Origin: Candidatus Hermodarchaeota archaeon
Lineage (GTDB): Archaea > Asgardarchaeota > Heimdallarchaeia > Hodarchaeales > Hodarchaeaceae
DNA: 32,000 bases
NCBI GenBank assembly: GCA_048886185.1
Contig: JBHLKY010000005.1
Coordinates: 138,358-170,357 of the forward strand
Direction of reading: 5' to 3'
A model generated the notes under the pieces. The model saw nothing but the letters and a program-made list of their open reading frames with translations. It made no database searches and was not told the DNA's origin. Shown one piece after another: positions 8,389 through 18,442 of this stretch (position 1 is the stretch's first letter; each line of letters opens with the position of its first letter). Made by a program: the position numbers and the translations under genes.

Positions 8389-10674
8389 TTAAAAGAATGA
8401 TTCCAAGGTCATATCTTTCTTGTGGAATTCAGGAGGGATCAAATTTTCATATGCTCGGAGAATTAGCTTCCGATACTCATTGACGTCATATTGCTCGTTT
8501 CCTCTTAGAAGCTGTTCTGCTTTCACACGTTTTTTCCAGTCTTTTGCCTGTGCATCAATAATAAGATAGCGAATTTTCACCCCAGGTTCGACATTGACCC
8601 CTAAAGCAGCCAACTGTTTAGCTGCAATTGCTTGGCGAGAATTGTTGACATACTCATCAGGGGCGCGTGAGGGGCGAATTGTTACAAACAATTCTTCATG
8701 AGGGATATTTCCAGCTTCTAGCTCCTCAGTACACCTTTTGATGAATCTTTTCGCCCGAAGACTAGCAAGTCGATACTCTTCTCGTGTTCGAGCTTTTGCT
8801 AGGATTTTTAGCATATTCATCTGTAATTTCTTGATAAAGGAGGGACTACTTGACTGGCGGATCTCAATACCACGGATACGAAATGTTCCGTCCGTTTTGA
8901 CTCCATAATACCGATTTAAGACTCCAATTTCGGGTTCATATCGTCGTGGAAGGAAAACCATCCAATGATAATCAGCGGAATGCTCGACAGGTAGTTTAAC
9001 TATGTTTGCCACCTCTTGACGTAATTCACGAGTCATCTCAGTCGGAACAGGTTCTTCATCAGAATTTTTCAACCAAACTGAATCAACGATCCCCGCAACC
9101 ACTTCTAAACCATACCTAGAGGCAAGTTGCTGAGTGAGAGTCAAAGCATGACGACCATAGGCGGATATTGTCTCATGTGACTCAATTCTACCAAAACGAG
9201 CGTTTCGATAACCTTGGTAACCGAAACAGCAAACAAGCAGCCACTTAAGCACCTTTTGACGGCGATCATAGATCGAATGTAAGTTTCGTTTAGCCTTGAA
9301 ATACTGACGACGATTTAAGATATTCTCTAATGAAAGACTCACTAATCCAGGTCTGCGAGTGCAAATGTGATATTCCGTGAGAGGGACTGGTTGAGCTTCT
9401 CTTGCCGTACAACACTTGCAGTTAACAGTTTCAGGGGACACATTCTTGTGTACCATTATATTAGGATACATGCTTAAGAAATCTAGTTCTGTAACATTCG
9501 CATGGAACCCCACTCTTGGAGAGAAGACCAAACCCCCAACATCTGATTGTAAACTCCAAGCAGGACGAAAAGACTCCGCATCAGCTTTCCTAGCGGGGAT
9601 TAAAATACCCTGATGGTAAGCTGTTCGCATTTGAACTGCTGAAAGCGTTGTACCAATTGTTCCTCTCGCGATGCGCTGAGGATCGCTGCATCCCAAACGA
9701 ACCAGTTCTTGAATGCCTTCTATATTACCATCTTTCCACATAAAAGAATTTCCGACATCATAATGATGTCGGCCTCCGTCTAGATAGACCCCAAACTGAG
9801 AGAAATACACTCGGCCATAGCTGACAAAACTATGCCCTCTCTGGCTTTTTACTTCTCTTTGCCCTTCTTTGTATCGTATATACCCCTGCTTCTCTTTATT
9901 GTACCGTAGATAACTACTTAATGTTCGTTTTCCACGACCAAGTCTTAAATTCCCTATTCCAGCCCTCACCGCACGATGAGCTATTATGGGGAAAAATGTG
10001 TCCCCACCCCGAGTGAACAGAATATCAGGGTCGTTTTTTTGGACATAATGCACGCAATCACGAATTAGATTTTCCTCGTTATCCTCTTCAAAAACAACAG
10101 GCTCTTCGTCCTGATCAATAACTGATTTTCGCAGAAGAAACTTGGTTATACGGTTTTCCCGCTTCTCGATAAGGTGTGGGTTTCTGAATATTGGCTGTAG
10201 CCAAAGCGTCTTGAACGGTACCGCCTGATAATCCATCTGTACATACGACTCAAGAAGATCCCAATTCTTCAGTTCCCCATTTGCCACTTTAATAGTTGCA
10301 TAAGCATAGGGAAAAAGGCCCGTTTGAAAGCAGAATTGTTGCCACAAACTCAAATCGGCGTTGTGCAGGTAGTCACTCCAATACTTTCGTAAATCCTCAT
10401 AGGTACTTCGGATTTTTTGAGGATTCACCTGGACACGGAAAACATCGGAAAGGGCATGGTCATGGATAGAGAGGTACTTCGAAACTTTTGTAACGTTTTC
10501 AATCTCTGGGTGACTAAGTAATTGTCTTTCTATTTGAGGGTCGTCTTTCGCCAGAAAAAATTCCGCAGTAAGAGGATAAAAAGTACGAATGGTTTTTTTT
10601 CCTGTAAGCCAGTATACGTTGACCCCCCAATCAGTAGCTTCGATTTCATGGAGCCAAGCACGGATCGGAGACAT
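8389..10674 (-). CDS. polB2: Family B DNA polymerase, PolB2/Dpo2 subgroup (degenerate exonuclease)
   Basis: Motif A ELDFLSMYP; motif B QKVLKWLLVCCFGYQG; motif C GIVDSVW (YGDTDS with first Asp lost); RGIEIR; SPETVNCKCC insert; no intact ExoI DxE. Confidence 0.9.
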   Translation of the reverse strand: MSPIRAWLHEIEATDWGVNVYWLTGKKTIRTFYPLTAEFFLAKDDPQIERQLLSHPEIENVTKVSKYLSIHDHALSDVFRVQVNPQKIRSTYEDLRKYWSDYLHNADLSLWQQFCFQTGLFPYAYATIKVANGELKNWDLLESYVQMDYQAVPFKTLWLQPIFRNPHLIEKRENRITKFLLRKSVIDQDEEPVVFEEDNEENLIRDCVHYVQKNDPDILFTRGGDTFFPIIAHRAVRAGIGNLRLGRGKRTLSSYLRYNKEKQGYIRYKEGQREVKSQRGHSFVSYGRVYFSQFGVYLDGGRHHYDVGNSFMWKDGNIEGIQELVRLGCSDPQRIARGTIGTTLSAVQMRTAYHQGILIPARKADAESFRPAWSLQSDVGGLVFSPRVGFHANVTELDFLSMYPNIMVHKNVSPETVNCKCCTAREAQPVPLTEYHICTRRPGLVSLSLENILNRRQYFKAKRNLHSIYDRRQKVLKWLLVCCFGYQGYRNARFGRIESHETISAYGRHALTLTQQLASRYGLEVVAGIVDSVWLKNSDEEPVPTEMTRELRQEVANIVKLPVEHSADYHWMVFLPRRYEPEIGVLNRYYGVKTDGTFRIRGIEIRQSSSPSFIKKLQMNMLKILAKARTREEYRLASLRAKRFIKRCTEELEAGNIPHEELFVTIRPSRAPDEYVNNSRQAIAAKQLAALGVNVEPGVKIRYLIIDAQAKDWKKRVKAEQLLRGNEQYDVNEYRKLILRAYENLIPPEFHKKDMTLESFF

Positions 10675-10991: not shown

Positions 10992-11798
10992 TCACCAAAA
11001 TTCTGTTAGAGGAATCTGTTGTTTCCCAATTTGTTGATGAGTAAGTGCCGCTTGGACTGGGGGGCCTCCCTTTTGAACAGTGAATAGGAGAGCATAGTCA
11101 CTTGAGGAATTCCGAGAGGCAGGAGAGGCTTCGACTCGAATAATATCTGTTGCAGCATGCGCAAAAAATGTTCCACCAAGTGGTTTCTGACTCCTTGGAG
11201 CATTTTCTGCTGTCATCAACCCGATTAAATCATTTTGAATTGTTAAACTCTTTAATTTCCCCACAGCCTGAGTTAATTCGAGAATAGAAGATACTACCGT
11301 TAATTTGTCGTACTCAAGATACTGTAGAGCCTCATCAGACAAATAAAGGGATGATATCTGAGGTACCAAGACTATACGAATACTAGGATTCGTGTCGATT
11401 AGTTTAGGCAACTTTTTGGTGAGAATTTCTGTCACTTGATGATAATTAAATGCACGTGCTAACTGAATGCGATCTAGTATCGATAACGGATCAAATCCCT
11501 GCTTTCTGGCTTCAAATGAGACATTGTAATAAGGAAACACATTGGCTCCATCAACAAACGCCAAGTCAGTTTCAGGGTTATTTGATAACAGCGAAACTGT
11601 GAGTTGAGCTATAAAGGTGCGTGCAACTTTGAGTGACAATTCTCCTTGAATCAAAGTTAAACTGCCTGGGTACAGTTTAATCACATCATCTAAGTGTGGT
11701 ATCCCGAGTCGTAAGTATTGCTGCATTTGCTGGTAGCGTGCATCAGCTGAGGTGAAAGTATGAGAAAATAAGCCACGATTCCGACAGATTTGGATCAT
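10992..11798 (-). CDS. Inactivated RadA/Rad51-like protein of the PolB2 cassette
   Basis: LGIPHLDDVI, SLTLIQG with Walker A lost, FVDGAN, RIQLARAFNYHQ, LGGTFFAH; first gene of the cassette. Confidence 0.85.
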   Translation of the reverse strand: MIQICRNRGLFSHTFTSADARYQQMQQYLRLGIPHLDDVIKLYPGSLTLIQGELSLKVARTFIAQLTVSLLSNNPETDLAFVDGANVFPYYNVSFEARKQGFDPLSILDRIQLARAFNYHQVTEILTKKLPKLIDTNPSIRIVLVPQISSLYLSDEALQYLEYDKLTVVSSILELTQAVGKLKSLTIQNDLIGLMTAENAPRSQKPLGGTFFAHAATDIIRVEASPASRNSSSDYALLFTVQKGGPPVQAALTHQQIGKQQIPLTEFW

Positions 11799-12016: not shown

Positions 12017-14864
12017 TCACTCAAGAACACAAATTTTAATCTCAAAAGGATCAAAAACCAATGTAGTTGAATCTTCTGTTAATTCTGTTTCTCCTTTTTT
12101 CGATCCGTCTATTTTGACCAGAGTACACTTTGTTATCGCAGAAGAAAATGTAATTTCAGCTGAAACAGTTTCATTCTGCAAATTAAACATAGTTACCCAT
12201 AATTTTTCATTACGTACTCGTAAGGAAGAAATCCTAATATTTGGATTATTTATGTAAATTAAAGGATAGAGTAAATCATCTGATCGTTCGTTCAAAGAGA
12301 ATTGAGTTGTTATTGGCTGCAGTGAAAAAGCCTCAGCATGATCCTCAGAATATGCTAATGGATCATCCTTTGAATGCAGTATTAGACTATATTCAAATGA
12401 ATACGTTGAATTTAGTTCTTGTGCACCTGGAGTAGCAATTCTTGGACCAGCATGTTCGGGCCTTTCAGGAATTCCAGAAAGTGAGAGCCACCCAACTGAA
12501 CGTACTAAGGTTAAAGCGAGTTGATTTCTGTTTACAAGTTCAATCTCTGGCAATCCTTTGTTCATTAAGGTAATAGCATATCGATTTAAATGATCCTCCA
12601 CTCTAATGTACCGTTTTTGAGGTTGGATTCCAGAAGGTTTTTCAATGAAAGTTTCATCACCAATAGGGCTACCAGATCTCTTAATACACCCAAAGTGCGT
12701 AGAAGTAAGAGTGTAATCTGTCTCAAATGGAAGGTTAAAACATACCCTTAGTCTATGATCCTTAGTAACATTTGTTAGGGTTGTTTTTAGATCAATTCTG
12801 GGAGAATCACGATAAAACTTGAAAATTGTTGTTATAGGTACTTTCTTTTTACCTATCCGTTTCTCTCTGGATTCATCAACTTCATAAAAGATTTCTATTA
12901 TCAAGGTTTGTTGAACCTCACATAATAAGGAACCAGATATTGTGACTGTCCTTTTCAGATCACTCACTTTAACGAATGCAGGACCCAATCGTCCAAATGT
13001 ATACTCATCTCCTCGGTCTCCCCAATCCTCAAACTGATGGAATTTCTGATAATTTTTCTTATTTTTCTTGTCATAAATATCAAAAGTTCCATCTCTGTTG
13101 AAAAGCAAATCATAGAAGGCATTACTCACACGATCTTTAGAAGCTTTAATGGAATTTGTTTGATTAATTTGTTTAATAGAGAAATCCGAGAGAATTAGTT
13201 TCGTAAAACTCCAAGGTTTCAAAGGAGCTAATGTTATGTATTTTTGTTCAAACTCTTTTGTGATTAATATATGGAATTTCTTGTACTTTTTACTATCGAT
13301 AACTTTTAATAGGTCCTTTTTCATTTCTCCCATATCAAGATCCCCCTCTGGTTTATCTCCGACGTTCATACGAACCTCGCATATTTCAGGATCATCTCCA
13401 TCAGATAATGAAGCTTTATTAACATAAAAGTTCATTAATCGCCTCCCTGGAAACATCTTCATTAATGCTCTCAGTTTAAGCCTACCAAGAGTCATCTCCC
13501 AAACAACATCAGTAGAAGATTGAAGTAGTTGTACCTCATAAATTTGTTTATCTATTTCAACTGATTTAACTGTAAAATCTCCAGAAACTTTAAACTCAAT
13601 ATTTCTTGGCATAGAGGTATTTGTTGGGTTGAAACAAAGGTATGATAGGTTAGTTGATGATTGCAATGTGTCATTTAAGGAAGTTAATGCTTTTTGAATA
13701 GCTATTTCTGCAAGAGATTCAGCCCAATAATAACGGAATCGCATTTCTTCATGAGTTTGGTCAATTGAACAACCACAAATCGAATCATGAGGTTGATTAC
13801 GTAAATACCACTTCCATGCTTGATTCAAATAAGCAGTTGGATAGCCATTATTTAGAAAATACCAAACGTAAGCATTTAATGGTTCTGCATAATGGACTAA
13901 CATGTCTTCTACTTTTTGATTCCACTGTTTGATCCACATCCTTGTTGAATAAGTGTCCTGTAATAGGTGTGCACGGGCGGCAGATCGAAATTCTCCAGTA
14001 AAAATAGGTGGGGAATAGTTTTCACGTTGCATTAATTGGATTAAACTCTGTACAAACTCATTTAAGACCCCAAGGGTTATCTCCACTCCATCAATGTCTA
14101 TATTTGAAAGATTAGCAGCCATTTGGGGATTGGGAAATTGATGATCAGTACCATTATGTAATAAGTATATAGGTAAAGGAGAGAAGGGAATCAATTGGCT
14201 AACAAGCTCCATTATTTCTGTAGTCAATTTTGAAGTCTCCTCTGGGAGCATAGCTGCGTTTCCATACCCAAAAGGAAGGTAAATTCCTAAAACAGAAGTT
14301 GTGGCTAAGGGATCACTTTTCCATATGAAAGGAACAGTGGTAATCTCAGGAGGTACTCCTCGCCAAACAACAACTGCCTCAAAATTTGTCAAATCACCGA
14401 TTAATTGGGGAATCACACGTGAATGACCAAACATATCGGGTAAATACCCTATTTGCATAAGTGGTATATTAAATTCTTTAGCTAGATCAAGACTATATTC
14501 AAGATTTCTTATAAGACTCTCTTGACCTACTAACCAAATGTCAGGAAGTAAGTACCAAGGTCCAACAGCAAGTTTCCCTTCCCTTATAAATTCTAATAGC
14601 TCTTCCTTCTTCTCTGGCCTAATTTCCAGGTAATCCTCTAAAACGATTGTTTGCCCATCAAACGTGAAATAAAAGTCTTGATTGTTTAAAATCTCTAACA
14701 ATTCATCAATCAAATTAACAAGCTTATATCGGAATTTTTGAAAAGGTAAATACCACTCTCTATTGGGTGTAAACTCACAAATGAGATCACATGTCCCAGT
14801 GAGTGTGAGGAGTGACAAAAATGTATTTTGCTTGATTTGAACTGTTATTTGTATCTGTGTCCAT
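12017..14864 (-). CDS. GH38 alpha-mannosidase (MngB-like), two exons: 14864-14793 and 14761-12017; 938 aa after splicing
   Basis: Exon 1 gives MDTDTNNSSNQAKYIFVTPHTHWD (24 codons, GGAG RBS-like element upstream). Exon 2 begins REWYLPF. Also FTFDGQ, GPWY, nucleophile GYLPDMFGH, NGTDHQ and QPHDSICGCS. The ORF-track start at TTG 14818 is out of frame with exon 1 and lacks HTHWD. Confidence 0.93.
14762..14792 (-). other. Candidate 31-nt bulge-helix-bulge (tRNA-type) mRNA intron
   Basis: Minus-strand insert ATGTGATCTCATTTGTGAGTTTACACCCAAT; central helix UGGG/CCCA; 3-nt bulges ACA and AUA; 10-position intron stem; exon stem CACUCAC/GAGAGUG; canonical cuts rejoin GAC|AGA in frame. Confidence 0.85.
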
Positions 14865-14897
14865 GTATTCGTATCTCCAAAGTTATTCTTATAACAA

Positions 14898-14903
14898 TTT
14901 AAA
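14898..14903 (-). promoter_or_regulatory. Putative TATA box (AAGG-TTTAAA) for the GH38 gene
   Basis: TTTAAA with purine-rich BRE-like flank about 34 nt upstream of ATG 14864; supports 14864 as the true start. Confidence 0.45.
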
Positions 14904-14977: not shown

Positions 14978-15970
14978 ATGCCAGCAAAAATTCTAATTGG
15001 GACAAGTGGATTTGGATATTCAGACTGGCAAGCTAGATATGAAAAAACTCGATTTCCTTTTTATCCTCAAAACTTAGATTCCCATCATCGCTTATCTTTT
15101 TATGCTGAAGTTTTTCCTACTGTGGAAATCAATACAACATTTTACCATTTTCCTCGTGCTTCAGTTGTGGATAAATGGGGACAACACGTTCCTAACGATT
15201 TTATTTTTGCATATAAGATTCCTCGTCATATTACACATCAGAAAAAACTTGATTTTAATCAAGGATACTGGGAAGAATTACGACCATTTTTGGATACTAT
15301 TTGCAGCGGTTTGGGTAGGAGTAAAACTGGGCCAGCACTACTACAATTACCACCTAAGTTTTCTGCTGACTATTTCAATCGTCTAGAAGTATTTCTGAAA
15401 TATTGGCCAAAAGACATTAGATTAGCAGTAGAGTTTCGCCACATTTCGTGGGTGGAACAAAAGCGACTTGATCAAACACTTTCACTATTATCCAAGCATA
15501 ATGCCGCTTATTGCATTGTTGATGAACCGTTGTTACCTCCAATAACACCAGTAACCGCTGATTTTTCATATATTCGATTCCATGGCCATGGTTTAAAACC
15601 TTGGTACAATTATCAATATAGTCTTGAAGAATTGACCCCTTGGGTATCGCGAATACGATCCCTAACTAGAAGTAAGGAATTGAAGGAAATCTTTACCTAT
15701 TTTAACAATCATCCACATGGTCATGCTCCTGCAAACGCACGACAATTAGCTATTCTTCTAAAGATTACACTAAAAAAGCCAGAGGATGTAAAGATGGCTA
15801 ATGTCAGGAGGAGGGCTGGGGATACTCCCCAACATTCATTAGAGAGCTTTTTAGATCTTCCATCTGTTGAATTAACCGATTATGTTCGATTTTGTTCCAA
15901 TTGTGGGAAAATGATCCTTAGAGATGACAATTTTTGTGAAAATTGTGGGCATCATCAGGAAAAGGATTAG
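14978..15970 (+). CDS. DUF72 (YecE-like) protein with C-terminal double zinc ribbon
   Basis: IGTSGFGYSDW, FPTVEINTTFYHFP, YKIPRHITH, LLQLPP, AVEFRH, YIRFHG, YFNNH; tail FCSNCG...FCENCG. Confidence 0.92.
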   Translation: MPAKILIGTSGFGYSDWQARYEKTRFPFYPQNLDSHHRLSFYAEVFPTVEINTTFYHFPRASVVDKWGQHVPNDFIFAYKIPRHITHQKKLDFNQGYWEELRPFLDTICSGLGRSKTGPALLQLPPKFSADYFNRLEVFLKYWPKDIRLAVEFRHISWVEQKRLDQTLSLLSKHNAAYCIVDEPLLPPITPVTADFSYIRFHGHGLKPWYNYQYSLEELTPWVSRIRSLTRSKELKEIFTYFNNHPHGHAPANARQLAILLKITLKKPEDVKMANVRRRAGDTPQHSLESFLDLPSVELTDYVRFCSNCGKMILRDDNFCENCGHHQEKD

Positions 15971-16237: not shown

Positions 16238-18442
16238 CCCCTGTCTTTAGAAATTTGTAGTGAATGCACTGATAAAGGTGAACAGATTTATCGCTGCAGT
16301 AAGTGCTCCGCTCCACTTTGTAGGCATAATATTCGGGTTCATGTATGCTCTTCTCCCACGCTTGGGTTACGTGGTAAGCAAAGTCCTCGTAGGGAAGGAG
16401 CAGATATTTCTGAAGCCGCATGGAAAAAGCTTCTGAAGCAAAAGAAAAAATATCAGGTAAAAATTCAAGAGGATTTAACATTTCTTATAGAGTTCCCATG
16501 GTATCCTTTCACACAGCTAAATGGCTGGATCCCAACCCGTCGTCCACACTACAAAGCGGAAAGAATTCGATCACTAAATGTAGAAGAATTATTCTCCTAT
16601 CTGGAAAAAGAAAATGATGTAAATTACGATCGTAAATTCTTTTATGATCCCTGGGCTCAAGAGCAATTCAATATTTGGCAGAGAAATTGGAAAAGACATA
16701 ATGGTTATTGGGTGCAAAATCGAACGCATAGAGCGACCAAGTTCGAGCTACAATTCCCACAATTAGCGTATGAAGACCTAGAAATCCTTCGAAAAGCAGG
16801 ATGTGAAATCGTTTTTGCTCCTGGTGCAAAGGAAAGACTGGAAAAACTGGAAAAGAAAGCCTCTAAGAATTTTAAGGTCACAGTTAAAACTGTGAAAGAT
16901 CGTTTAAGAATACATTGGAATGACGACTTCAATACATGGTTCCATTCTTTATTTACAGTTTTTGCCCGATTTATGGCCATTCGATCTGACGATGATCCCG
17001 AGGCAGACTATATTCCATGTATTAATCAGACAGGTCCTCAGGAAATACAAGTGGAATATTGGGCAGCATTTAGAGCTAATCACTTCTGGCAAGTAGTTAA
17101 TAAAACATTAAAGGAATCAAATGGTCCACCTCTCTTTGAATTAAATTATAAACCATTTAAACCTTCTTCCAAGTCATATGAATTTACAATTGCACCTAAT
17201 TACACCCTTCGATCCTATCAGCAGATAGCAATAGATAAATGGAAAGAGAATAGCTATTTTGGATCTATTCAGCTCCCAACTGGTGCTGGAAAAAGTTTAA
17301 TAGGTATTGACGCAATACGAGATGTTCATGAAAGAACCCTTATTTTAGTACCGAATCTTGCTCTCGTAGATCAATGGGTCGATTTTACTTCAAAATTCCT
17401 TTCAATTCCTGTTACTCGAATAGGTATATTTAATGGCCAGAAAAAAGCATTCCGTGAGTATCCCATTGTTATTTCGACATACCAATTGTTAAGTCAATAT
17501 TTACAAGATTTACAGGCCTATAGACACAAAGATAATCCTACTAAACCTCTCCGTGAGAAAGATCTAGTAGAAGATACAATCGGATTCTTTACTCACAAAT
17601 TTGGCCTTTTAATCGCAGATGAGTCTCATCACATTCAAGCAGAAACTTTTAGACAAATCGCGGTAGATCTAGAAATCCCCCGACGTCTAGCATTGTCTGC
17701 AACTATCGAAAAAAGCGTCCACAGCAGCTTAGTTATTGCAACTATGGGGCCTATAATCCACAAAATTTCTTATGGACTCCTTGCAAGAGAAGGATTCATT
17801 GCTCCAATTTACTTTAAACGAATTCACATCCCATTAACTGCTGATGAAAAGGGATATTTAAACCGTAAAGGGAAAAGATCTTATGGGAAAGTCTCCAGAC
17901 AGGCGAGTAATAAACTAGTGGCTATTCGAAAACTTCTAGAATCAACTGTGACATCGCAGACTCTCATCTTTACCAGTCGTATCAAACACGCGATGAGAAT
18001 CCATTCATATCTTAAAAAACATGGAATAGATACCACTGTACTTACAGGACATACAGTGATGAATGATCAGGAGCTTAATCTGTTATTGGATCAATTTAGG
18101 GCCAAAAAAATAAATACACTTGTACTTGTAAAAATGCTTAATGAAGGGTTTGATGCTCCTGCAGACACAATTATCATTGCATCTGGTACGAGAAACAGAA
18201 GAGAACAAATTCAACGAGTTGGTCGAGCTACTCGTCCTGGAAAAGTTGCAAAGCTGTTCGAATTAATCATTGACCCTCTAGAATTGGATTACGAGTATGA
18301 AGTAGCTCAAGCACGAGATATCTCAGATGTGATTGAACCTCATGTACAAGATCTTCTCTTACCCGCTGAAGTTAAAGAGGAGATTAATAAAGTAGTTAAT
18401 GATATCAAAATCGGTTTTTATAACAATAGATATGAAAACTAG
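16238..18442 (+). CDS. XPB/Rad25-like SF2 helicase with N-terminal zinc finger; frame is open from 16238, first standard start is GTG 16712, true start unresolved
   Basis: LRSYQ, LPTGAGKS, LIADESHH, LSAT, EGFDAP, QRVGR. The same frame continues 158 codons upstream with CSEC...YRCSKCSAPLCRHNIRVHVC. Confidence 0.85.
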   Translation, partial: PLSLEICSECTDKGEQIYRCSKCSAPLCRHNIRVHVCSSPTLGLRGKQSPRREGADISEAAWKKLLKQKKKYQVKIQEDLTFLIEFPWYPFTQLNGWIPTRRPHYKAERIRSLNVEELFSYLEKENDVNYDRKFFYDPWAQEQFNIWQRNWKRHNGYWVQNRTHRATKFELQFPQLAYEDLEILRKAGCEIVFAPGAKERLEKLEKKASKNFKVTVKTVKDRLRIHWNDDFNTWFHSLFTVFARFMAIRSDDDPEADYIPCINQTGPQEIQVEYWAAFRANHFWQVVNKTLKESNGPPLFELNYKPFKPSSKSYEFTIAPNYTLRSYQQIAIDKWKENSYFGSIQLPTGAGKSLIGIDAIRDVHERTLILVPNLALVDQWVDFTSKFLSIPVTRIGIFNGQKKAFREYPIVISTYQLLSQYLQDLQAYRHKDNPTKPLREKDLVEDTIGFFTHKFGLLIADESHHIQAETFRQIAVDLEIPRRLALSATIEKSVHSSLVIATMGPIIHKISYGLLAREGFIAPIYFKRIHIPLTADEKGYLNRKGKRSYGKVSRQASNKLVAIRKLLESTVTSQTLIFTSRIKHAMRIHSYLKKHGIDTTVLTGHTVMNDQELNLLLDQFRAKKINTLVLVKMLNEGFDAPADTIIIASGTRNRREQIQRVGRATRPGKVAKLFELIIDPLELDYEYEVAQARDISDVIEPHVQDLLLPAEVKEEINKVVNDIKIGFYNNRYEN

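Follow-up and report, generated by a model that had tools for sequence, protein, structure and literature searches.

How can an archaeal cell make a working enzyme from a gene whose conserved active-site motif is split between two reading frames? This question is raised by a gene of glycoside hydrolase family 38 (GH38) on the minus strand of a 32,000-nucleotide stretch of the genome of a Candidatus Hermodarchaeota archaeon (GenBank assembly GCA_048886185.1, contig JBHLKY010000005.1, positions 138,358 to 170,357), hereafter called the window. An insert of 31 nucleotides separates 24 codons that end in HTHWD from the long remainder of the gene, which begins with REWY. In all likelihood this insert represents a bulge-helix-bulge (BHB) intron of the GH38 pre-mRNA, of the kind cut by the archaeal splicing endonuclease EndA. 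Cleavage, ligation and translation of the spliced form are what we infer from the anatomy of the gene, its fold and its relatives.

The translation of the 5' exon (MDTDTNNSSNQAKYIFVTPHTHWD) ends in ...TPHTHWD, encoded by the codons CAC ACT CAC TGG GAC, and the 3' exon opens with AGA GAG TGG TAT at 14761 (REWYLPFQ...) in a frame shifted by one, which stays open to a stop at 12017. Because 31 is of the form 3n+1, removal of the insert joins the two frames; the predicted spliced junction, ...CACTGGGAC joined to AGAGAGTGG, reads HTHWD followed by REWY and belongs to a product of 938 amino acids (24 + 914). The junction between intron and 3' exon is ambiguous by one base, with two equivalent placements, since both begin with A. 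Without splicing, translation from the upstream ATG meets a TGA within the insert after one or five codons in each of 13 copies of the gene. The public gene call for the window gene, a protein of 933 amino acids (12017-14818, minus strand), takes a TTG at 14818, within the 5' exon, as its start and continues across the insert.

Matches of the 3' exon to the Pfam families Glyco_hydro_38N, Alpha-mann_mid and Glyco_hydro_38C (E 1e-17, 6e-15 and 1e-12), together with the match of an intron-less orthologue to the solved GH38 structures 3LVT, 5KBP and 2WYH, identify the predicted product as a member of GH38 of the alpha-mannosidase / mannosylglycerate hydrolase type, with a putative substrate specificity. 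The Glyco_hydro_38N match in the 3' exon begins only at profile position 13, and the missing start of the domain (its first 12 positions) is therefore the 5' exon. In Golgi mannosidase II (dGMII) the zinc ligands include His90 and Asp92, with Trp95 after them. The same H-x-D-x-x-W spacing is found here, with the His and Asp coming from the 5' exon and the Trp from the 3' exon, and this metal-ligand motif with its following Trp is complete only in the spliced product. A protein started further downstream would lose two metal ligands, which would make splicing obligatory for an active enzyme. With the metal-binding motif split by the insert, production of the enzyme very probably depends on cutting and rejoining of the mRNA.

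The relatives of the gene bear directly on this reading. Among the best 120 homologues the motif H/S-T-H-W-D-R-E-W-Y is contiguous in 105, and 11, the window's own record included, have a read-through N-terminus resembling ...LTGTC....EFTPNREWY. When the DNA of the loci was read, an insert of exactly 31 nucleotides was found at the same site in 15 orthologous copies: eight spread over seven further GTDB genomes from this genus (two of the copies being in a single genome), three in NCBI assemblies, two on JGI metagenome contigs, one in a Logan assembly and the one in this window. In a further 14 orthologue loci read as DNA the insert is exactly absent (...TGG GAY followed directly by AGR or CGN GAR TGG). 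A divergent DUF72 gene lies upstream in several of the fetched loci, both with and without the intron, and they are therefore orthologues. The N-termini called for the intron-bearing orthologues are artefacts.

Furthermore, both exons carry the marks of selection on their coding sequence. The 5' exon ends in ...PHTHWD in all 13 copies examined and is preceded by an ATG in all 12 for which the upstream region was read; in most orthologues, with or without the intron, the junction is reached 24 codons after the start codon (range 17-29), and a GGAG/GGTG-like motif usually precedes that codon. When the 13 copies are compared pairwise, codon differences in the frame of the 5' exon divide into 211 synonymous and 212 non-synonymous, compared with 15:353 and 52:306 in the other two frames. 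Over the last 13 codons of the exon there are 4, 4 and 10 variable columns at codon positions 1, 2 and 3, respectively; all four bases are seen at the third position of the Thr codon, and the Asp codon's free third position, which supplies the second base of the 5' bulge, is C in seven copies and T in six. The two exons are conserved at the protein level (about 58-80% identity), and the 3' exon is open for ~890-917 codons, with no further lesions, in every copy that is assembled to its end. Selection has thus kept two exons in different frames together while the proteins diverged, which is only sensible if the 31 nucleotides are removed.

The RNA around the insert folds in a way that would allow such removal. 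In the minimum-energy structure of 14748-14812, a UGGG/CCCA helix is flanked by ACA and AUA, unpaired on opposite strands, with a UUUG-loop hairpin on the intron side and a closing exon-exon helix on the other. These two bulges around the 4-bp helix are 3 nucleotides long in all 12 orthologues of the gapless alignment on which structure conservation was scored. Cuts after the second base of each bulge, as the rule for the splicing endonuclease predicts, would remove exactly 14792-14762, and the resulting product matches the intron-less orthologues residue for residue. An earlier interpretation made from the letters of the window alone, here termed the sequence-only reading, had described the same 24 codons, insert and frame change, which were confirmed, and had derived the same excised segment and an in-frame protein of 938 amino acids, both of which the present prediction reproduces. 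Its fold held for the central helix, the two bulges and the hairpin; its register for the exon stem is the textbook one, in which C-G and an A.A mismatch are followed by 5 pairs, and in this sequence that register costs 0.4 kcal/mol relative to the minimum.

In this alignment all 12 copies form the central helix (100% of cells), with changes only from G-C to G-U and from U-A to U-G, and the four intron-helix pairs beside the bulge are kept in 11-12 of the 12. Variation is seen in the loop, in the inner part of the stem and in the middle base of the bulges; that of the 3' bulge, for example, is U, C or A. Overall, 85.7% of cells are paired, a share that drops to 34-54% once the partners are slid. 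On the exon side the helix, which is strict in this genome, contains a forced A.A or A.G mismatch and can take either of two competing registers. RNAalifold favours a register shifted by two bases, in which the 3' site becomes a 2x3 internal loop. The same three bases are unpaired beside the central helix in both registers, and the predicted cuts are therefore independent of the register. Such a motif is rare: genome-wide, one of this quality occurs at a frequency of 2.9e-5 per position and length under a loose rule and 4.8e-6 under a strict one (81,115 loose and 13,303 strict matches on both strands over 287 lengths).

With an mRNA as its host RNA, the intron depends on codons to supply the exon-side helix. 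Codon usage differs between the genes with and without the intron. His is CAC in 13/13 copies with the intron compared with 3/13 without it (Fisher 1e-4), Glu is GAG in 11/13 compared with 2/13 (1e-3), and Arg is AGR in 13/13 compared with 5/13. The biased synonymous sites of His and Glu take part in pairing when the exon helix is in its textbook register.

The genome also encodes the enzymes that the sequence-only reading had invoked. Two full-length EndA homologues lie on contig 8 (regions 47026-47280 and 79836-80096; loci L001, 1162-1782, and L002, 1222-1860), and RtcB is encoded on contig 9 (134509-135786; 533 bits). One of the EndA subunits aligns without gaps with the catalytic subunit of the (alpha-beta)2 enzyme of Aeropyrum pernix (E 3e-41), has Tyr, His and Lys aligned identically with it in the stretches of the catalytic domain, and has Lys in both places that correspond to K44 and R46 in the Crenarchaea-specific loop, which has been shown to give a broad substrate range (PMC3241643). 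The second EndA-like subunit has no His at the catalytic place, and is most like the structural units known from the enzymes of ARMAN-2 and Methanopyrus. These alignments suggest that the EndA of this Asgard genome is an (alpha-beta)2 enzyme. The exon helix of the GH38 motif, with its mismatch, its two registers and its weakness in some relatives, fits the relaxed motif type that such enzymes accept (PMC3241643). Moreover, aragorn calls an intron in 21 of the 32 tRNA genes that it finds in the genome.

In the mechanism that we propose, the intron sits between the Asp and Arg codons of the conserved motif, and the primary transcript would fold so that UGGG of the exon pairs with CCCA of the intron, leaving a bulge on each strand. 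EndA would cut after the second base of each bulge, and RtcB would join the exons and probably circularise the intron. Only the spliced mRNA would then encode the full-length enzyme with all metal ligands, while translation of the unspliced form would stop at the TGA one codon into the intron. The coordinates of these elements are collected in the table, along with interrupted genes elsewhere in the genome that are described further below.

Features of the GH38 locus (window positions) and single in-frame stops in genes elsewhere in the genome (contig, strand, oriented coordinate)
Feature	Position	Strand	Basis or remark
Start codon ATG of the 5' exon	14862..14864	-	GGAG at 14875-14878 ahead of it
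5' exon, 24 codons ending HTHWD	14793..14864	-	Translation; His and Asp match GH38 zinc ligands
BHB intron (predicted), 31 nt (3n+1)	14762..14792	-	Sequence and fold; predicted to be excised and circularised
3' exon, 914 codons and stop, rest of the GH38 alpha-mannosidase	12017..14761	-	Open frame and Pfam
TGA ending unspliced translation one codon past the 5' exon	14787..14789	-	Sequence
Whole helix-bulge-helix-bulge-helix motif	14754..14805	-	Exon helix is 14799-14805 with 14754-14760
Central 4-bp helix, exon strand UGGG	14795..14798	-	Paired in 12/12 aligned orthologues
Central 4-bp helix, intron strand CCCA	14764..14767	-	Pairs with UGGG
5' bulge ACA	14792..14794	-	Predicted cut between 14793 and 14792
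3' bulge AUA	14761..14763	-	Predicted cut between 14762 and 14761
Intron hairpin with loop UUUG; among the 10 stem positions are one U.U mismatch and one G-U pair	14768..14791	-	Fold
In-frame TAG stops	C3(+)240352, C12(+)40204, C18(-)101730, C32(-)3565		
In-frame TGA stops	C5(-)44786, C25(+)41018		
In-frame TAA stops	C1(-)43829, C12(-)21736, C17(-)95746		

Several observations weigh against this interpretation and should be set beside it. The fold energy is ordinary (-18.3 kcal/mol, z -1.35, with 18 of 200 shuffles equally good), and it is the geometry at boundaries fixed independently by the relatives, not the fold energy, that exceeds chance. The exon helix in its textbook register is weak in five relatives (-4 to -8 kcal/mol compared with minima of -14 to -17), so that a relaxed internal loop may stand at the 3' site. 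The sequence-only reading had looked to orthologues for exact presence or absence of the insert and for compensatory changes; the former was found (15 with, 14 without), and base-pair covariation is not significant, as a double compensatory change is seen at one pair only and the observed pairing percentage is reached by 87 of 500 shuffles. Similarly, the codon biases are not phylogenetically independent and an independent-pairs test, with only two well-supported pairs, had no power; as the rows are related, the bias is suggestive only as support for the exon helix. Searches for RNA returned no run matching 13600-14900 of the window; one run of unknown kind (80% likeness) covers 13735-14117 only, with the intron outside it.

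No second mRNA intron was found in the genome by a BHB scan, which is insensitive, or by a split-gene screen. With a frame test, the genome-wide scan gave no excess over junctions shifted by 1-2 nucleotides (e.g. 86 compared with 70-76), and the GH38 site was the only strict candidate that looked real. The scan requires 6/7 exon-helix pairs and recovers 1 of the 21 tRNA introns called by aragorn; because of this insensitivity, the genome could hold further mRNA introns. The paralogue-guided split-gene screen returned three frame-change pairs, all of which are ordinary gene boundaries.

Other explanations of the insert have been considered. It might never be removed, in which case an N-terminally shortened GH38 protein would be made from an internal start in the read-through frame and the 24 codons would be an unrelated or vestigial small open reading frame. 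The long frame is indeed open through the insert, and gene callers give such proteins in at least 10 database records. However, the shortened protein would be without the His and Asp that match two GH38 zinc ligands, and coding selection on the 5' exon is seen in the exon's own frame, the read-through frame being the one with 52 synonymous to 306 non-synonymous differences. The called N-termini of the read-through proteins also start at different, non-homologous places, and a length constant at 31 nucleotides in 15 copies speaks against an insert that stays in the message, so that we consider this explanation improbable. Somewhat less probable again is a skipping of the insert in translation, by ribosome hopping as in phage T4 gene 60 or by frameshifting, to which the stop codon and hairpin after the last exon codon give a superficial likeness. 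Bypassing requires matching take-off and landing codons, whereas only 2 of the 13 copies have a GAY codon immediately ahead of the 3' exon; a frameshift would insert 10 variable residues in the active-site motif, and the zero frame has a TGA in the insert. Moreover, the parts that are conserved are those that a BHB needs, in a genome with a broad-type EndA.

A pseudogene with a random insertion, or an error of assembly, is the least probable of these explanations. Seen in a single genome, a 3n+1 insertion in a conserved motif does resemble a disabling mutation. The sequence-only reading had nevertheless argued against both possibilities, and the same insert in 15 copies from unrelated assemblies and studies bears it out. 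The further gene decay that it had named as a sign of a pseudogene is absent from the insert-bearing relatives: their 3' exons are open over the lengths given above without other lesions, and both exons keep their protein identity. Its attribution of the DNA to a probable Asgard archaeon also agrees with the nearest records, which are titled Hodarchaeota or Heimdallarchaeota.

The history of the BHB intron was examined with a gene tree of 43 rows and 915 columns. Intron-bearing genes are interleaved with intron-less ones, and at least six changes are forced by well-supported branches; a single intron clade costs 902 log-likelihood units and is rejected by the approximately unbiased test (p 1e-96). 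The introns are clearly homologous to one another and are most alike where the host genes are most alike. From the scatter of the intron-bearing genes and the way in which the introns track their hosts, the simplest history is a single gain in the genus, after which the intron was repeatedly lost with base precision or intron-less alleles took its place; the data imply that exact loss or exchange occurred more than once. Built from the intron and its flanks, a covariance model matched 8 of the 22 genomes of the genus, with one site in this genome, and gave no convincing match among 61 other genomes of the class, where the one outside match is an intron-less gene. In blastn-short searches of the genome with the intron and with the whole motif, only chance matches of 15 nucleotides were obtained, and no match to Rfam was found in the window. 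With a single site in this genome and matches confined to the genus, the intron is therefore not a spread element.

For BHB introns within coding sequence, the searchable literature reports only crenarchaeal cbf5, to which one intron in a 5' untranslated region of Haloferax can be added (PMC2738675, PMC7714728). A preprint of 2026 concerns the tRNA introns of Asgard archaea and does not cover mRNAs (bioRxiv 10.64898/2026.10.13.758758). The cbf5 intron, known from the Desulfurococcales and Sulfolobales of the Crenarchaeota (Watanabe 2002; Yokobori 2009, PMC2738675), is likewise a small, BHB-flanked intron in a protein-coding sequence, presumed to be cut by EndA and joined by a tRNA ligase, and it occurs in a clade, with exact loss in some lineages. 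In contrast, the host of the GH38 intron is an Asgard archaeon of the Hodarchaeales type, the gene encodes a glycoside hydrolase and not an RNA-modification enzyme, the intron lies within an active-site metal motif, and its loss or exchange is much more frequent (at least six events in one GTDB genus). Splicing of cbf5 was shown experimentally, whereas that of the GH38 gene is a prediction. The BHB intron of Haloferax volcanii HVO_1309 (Schwarz 2020, PMC7714728) resembles the one described here as an EndA substrate in an mRNA with circular excision; it differs in lying in an untranslated leader, where no frame is interrupted, and in having been confirmed by circular RNA sequencing (circRNA-seq) and in vitro cleavage. 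The tRNA introns at non-canonical positions in Thermoproteota and Asgard archaea have the same motif and the same predicted enzyme (PMC3241643; bioRxiv 10.64898/2026.10.13.758758). Those of this genome are roughly 30 nucleotides long, similar in size to the GH38 intron, whereas the host RNA of the latter is an mRNA and no similarity to any other site in the genome was found.

A comparable arrangement exists in eukaryotes, where the HAC1 and XBP1 mRNAs are cut at stem-loops by Ire1 and rejoined by a tRNA ligase or RtcB, with a frame change that enables the active protein to be made. Here too mRNA is cut by protein alone, outside the spliceosome, and the exons are joined by a tRNA ligase. The nuclease is Ire1, in contrast, and not the tRNA splicing endonuclease, the motif consists of two 7-nucleotide loops, and homology is not implied. 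The mechanism proposed for the GH38 intron is known from cbf5; the lineage and the gene are new, and the pattern of presence and absence is dense.

The Hodarchaeota and Heimdallarchaeota belong to the Asgard group that is usually placed closest to eukaryotes. The GH38 intron would extend the cbf5-type mechanism to an ordinary metabolic enzyme, and the 15 intron-bearing and 14 intron-less orthologues, interleaved on the tree, offer a natural experiment on the gain, loss and cost of an mRNA intron. The public N-termini of the intron-bearing genes are wrong and omit the catalytic metal ligands, and gene prediction in Asgard genomes therefore calls for a step that takes BHB introns into account. 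A much wider proposition, which we hold to be rather unlikely and put forward as speculation, is that mRNA splicing by the tRNA machinery could form a regular and evolutionarily active layer of expression across the Asgard archaea, the Hodarchaeales-type lineage included, in which introns would enter coding sequences, serve as obligatory and possibly regulated on-switches for enzymes, and be erased repeatedly with base precision. If this were true, erasure could occur by the copying of spliced mRNA into DNA or by recombination with intron-less alleles.

Some minor observations were made along the way. The read-through database records (P0003, P0004, P0006, P0007, P0015, P0016, P0018-P0021 and P0024) have assorted internal starts and no HTHWD motif. 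One related genome (G013) has two intron-bearing GH38 5' ends, on contigs C201 and C341 (loci L044 and L050), with introns that differ at one base, a G-U pair in one being A-U in the other; either a duplication of the gene or a mixture of two strains in the bin could account for this. Among its tRNA calls for the host genome, aragorn listed three intron-bearing 'tRNA-Pyl(cta)' genes (C3:182110-182310, C11:98585-98688 and C14:26674-26782). PylS was looked for in the genome and was not found (best 26 bits against a cut-off of 178), and the calls are probably mis-called multi-intron tRNAs. Nine genes of the genome contain a single in-frame stop across which a paralogue aligns straight (see the table); these could be pseudogenes, read-through sites or recoding sites.

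The genes around the GH38 gene form an ordinary information-processing neighbourhood that is unconnected with the intron. The divergent upstream gene (14978-15970, plus strand) encodes a DUF72 protein with a C-terminal zinc ribbon, and the locus is flanked by genes for a family B DNA polymerase (8389-10674, minus), a Rad51/RadB-like ATPase (10992-11798, minus) and an XPB/Rad25-type helicase (16712-18442, plus).

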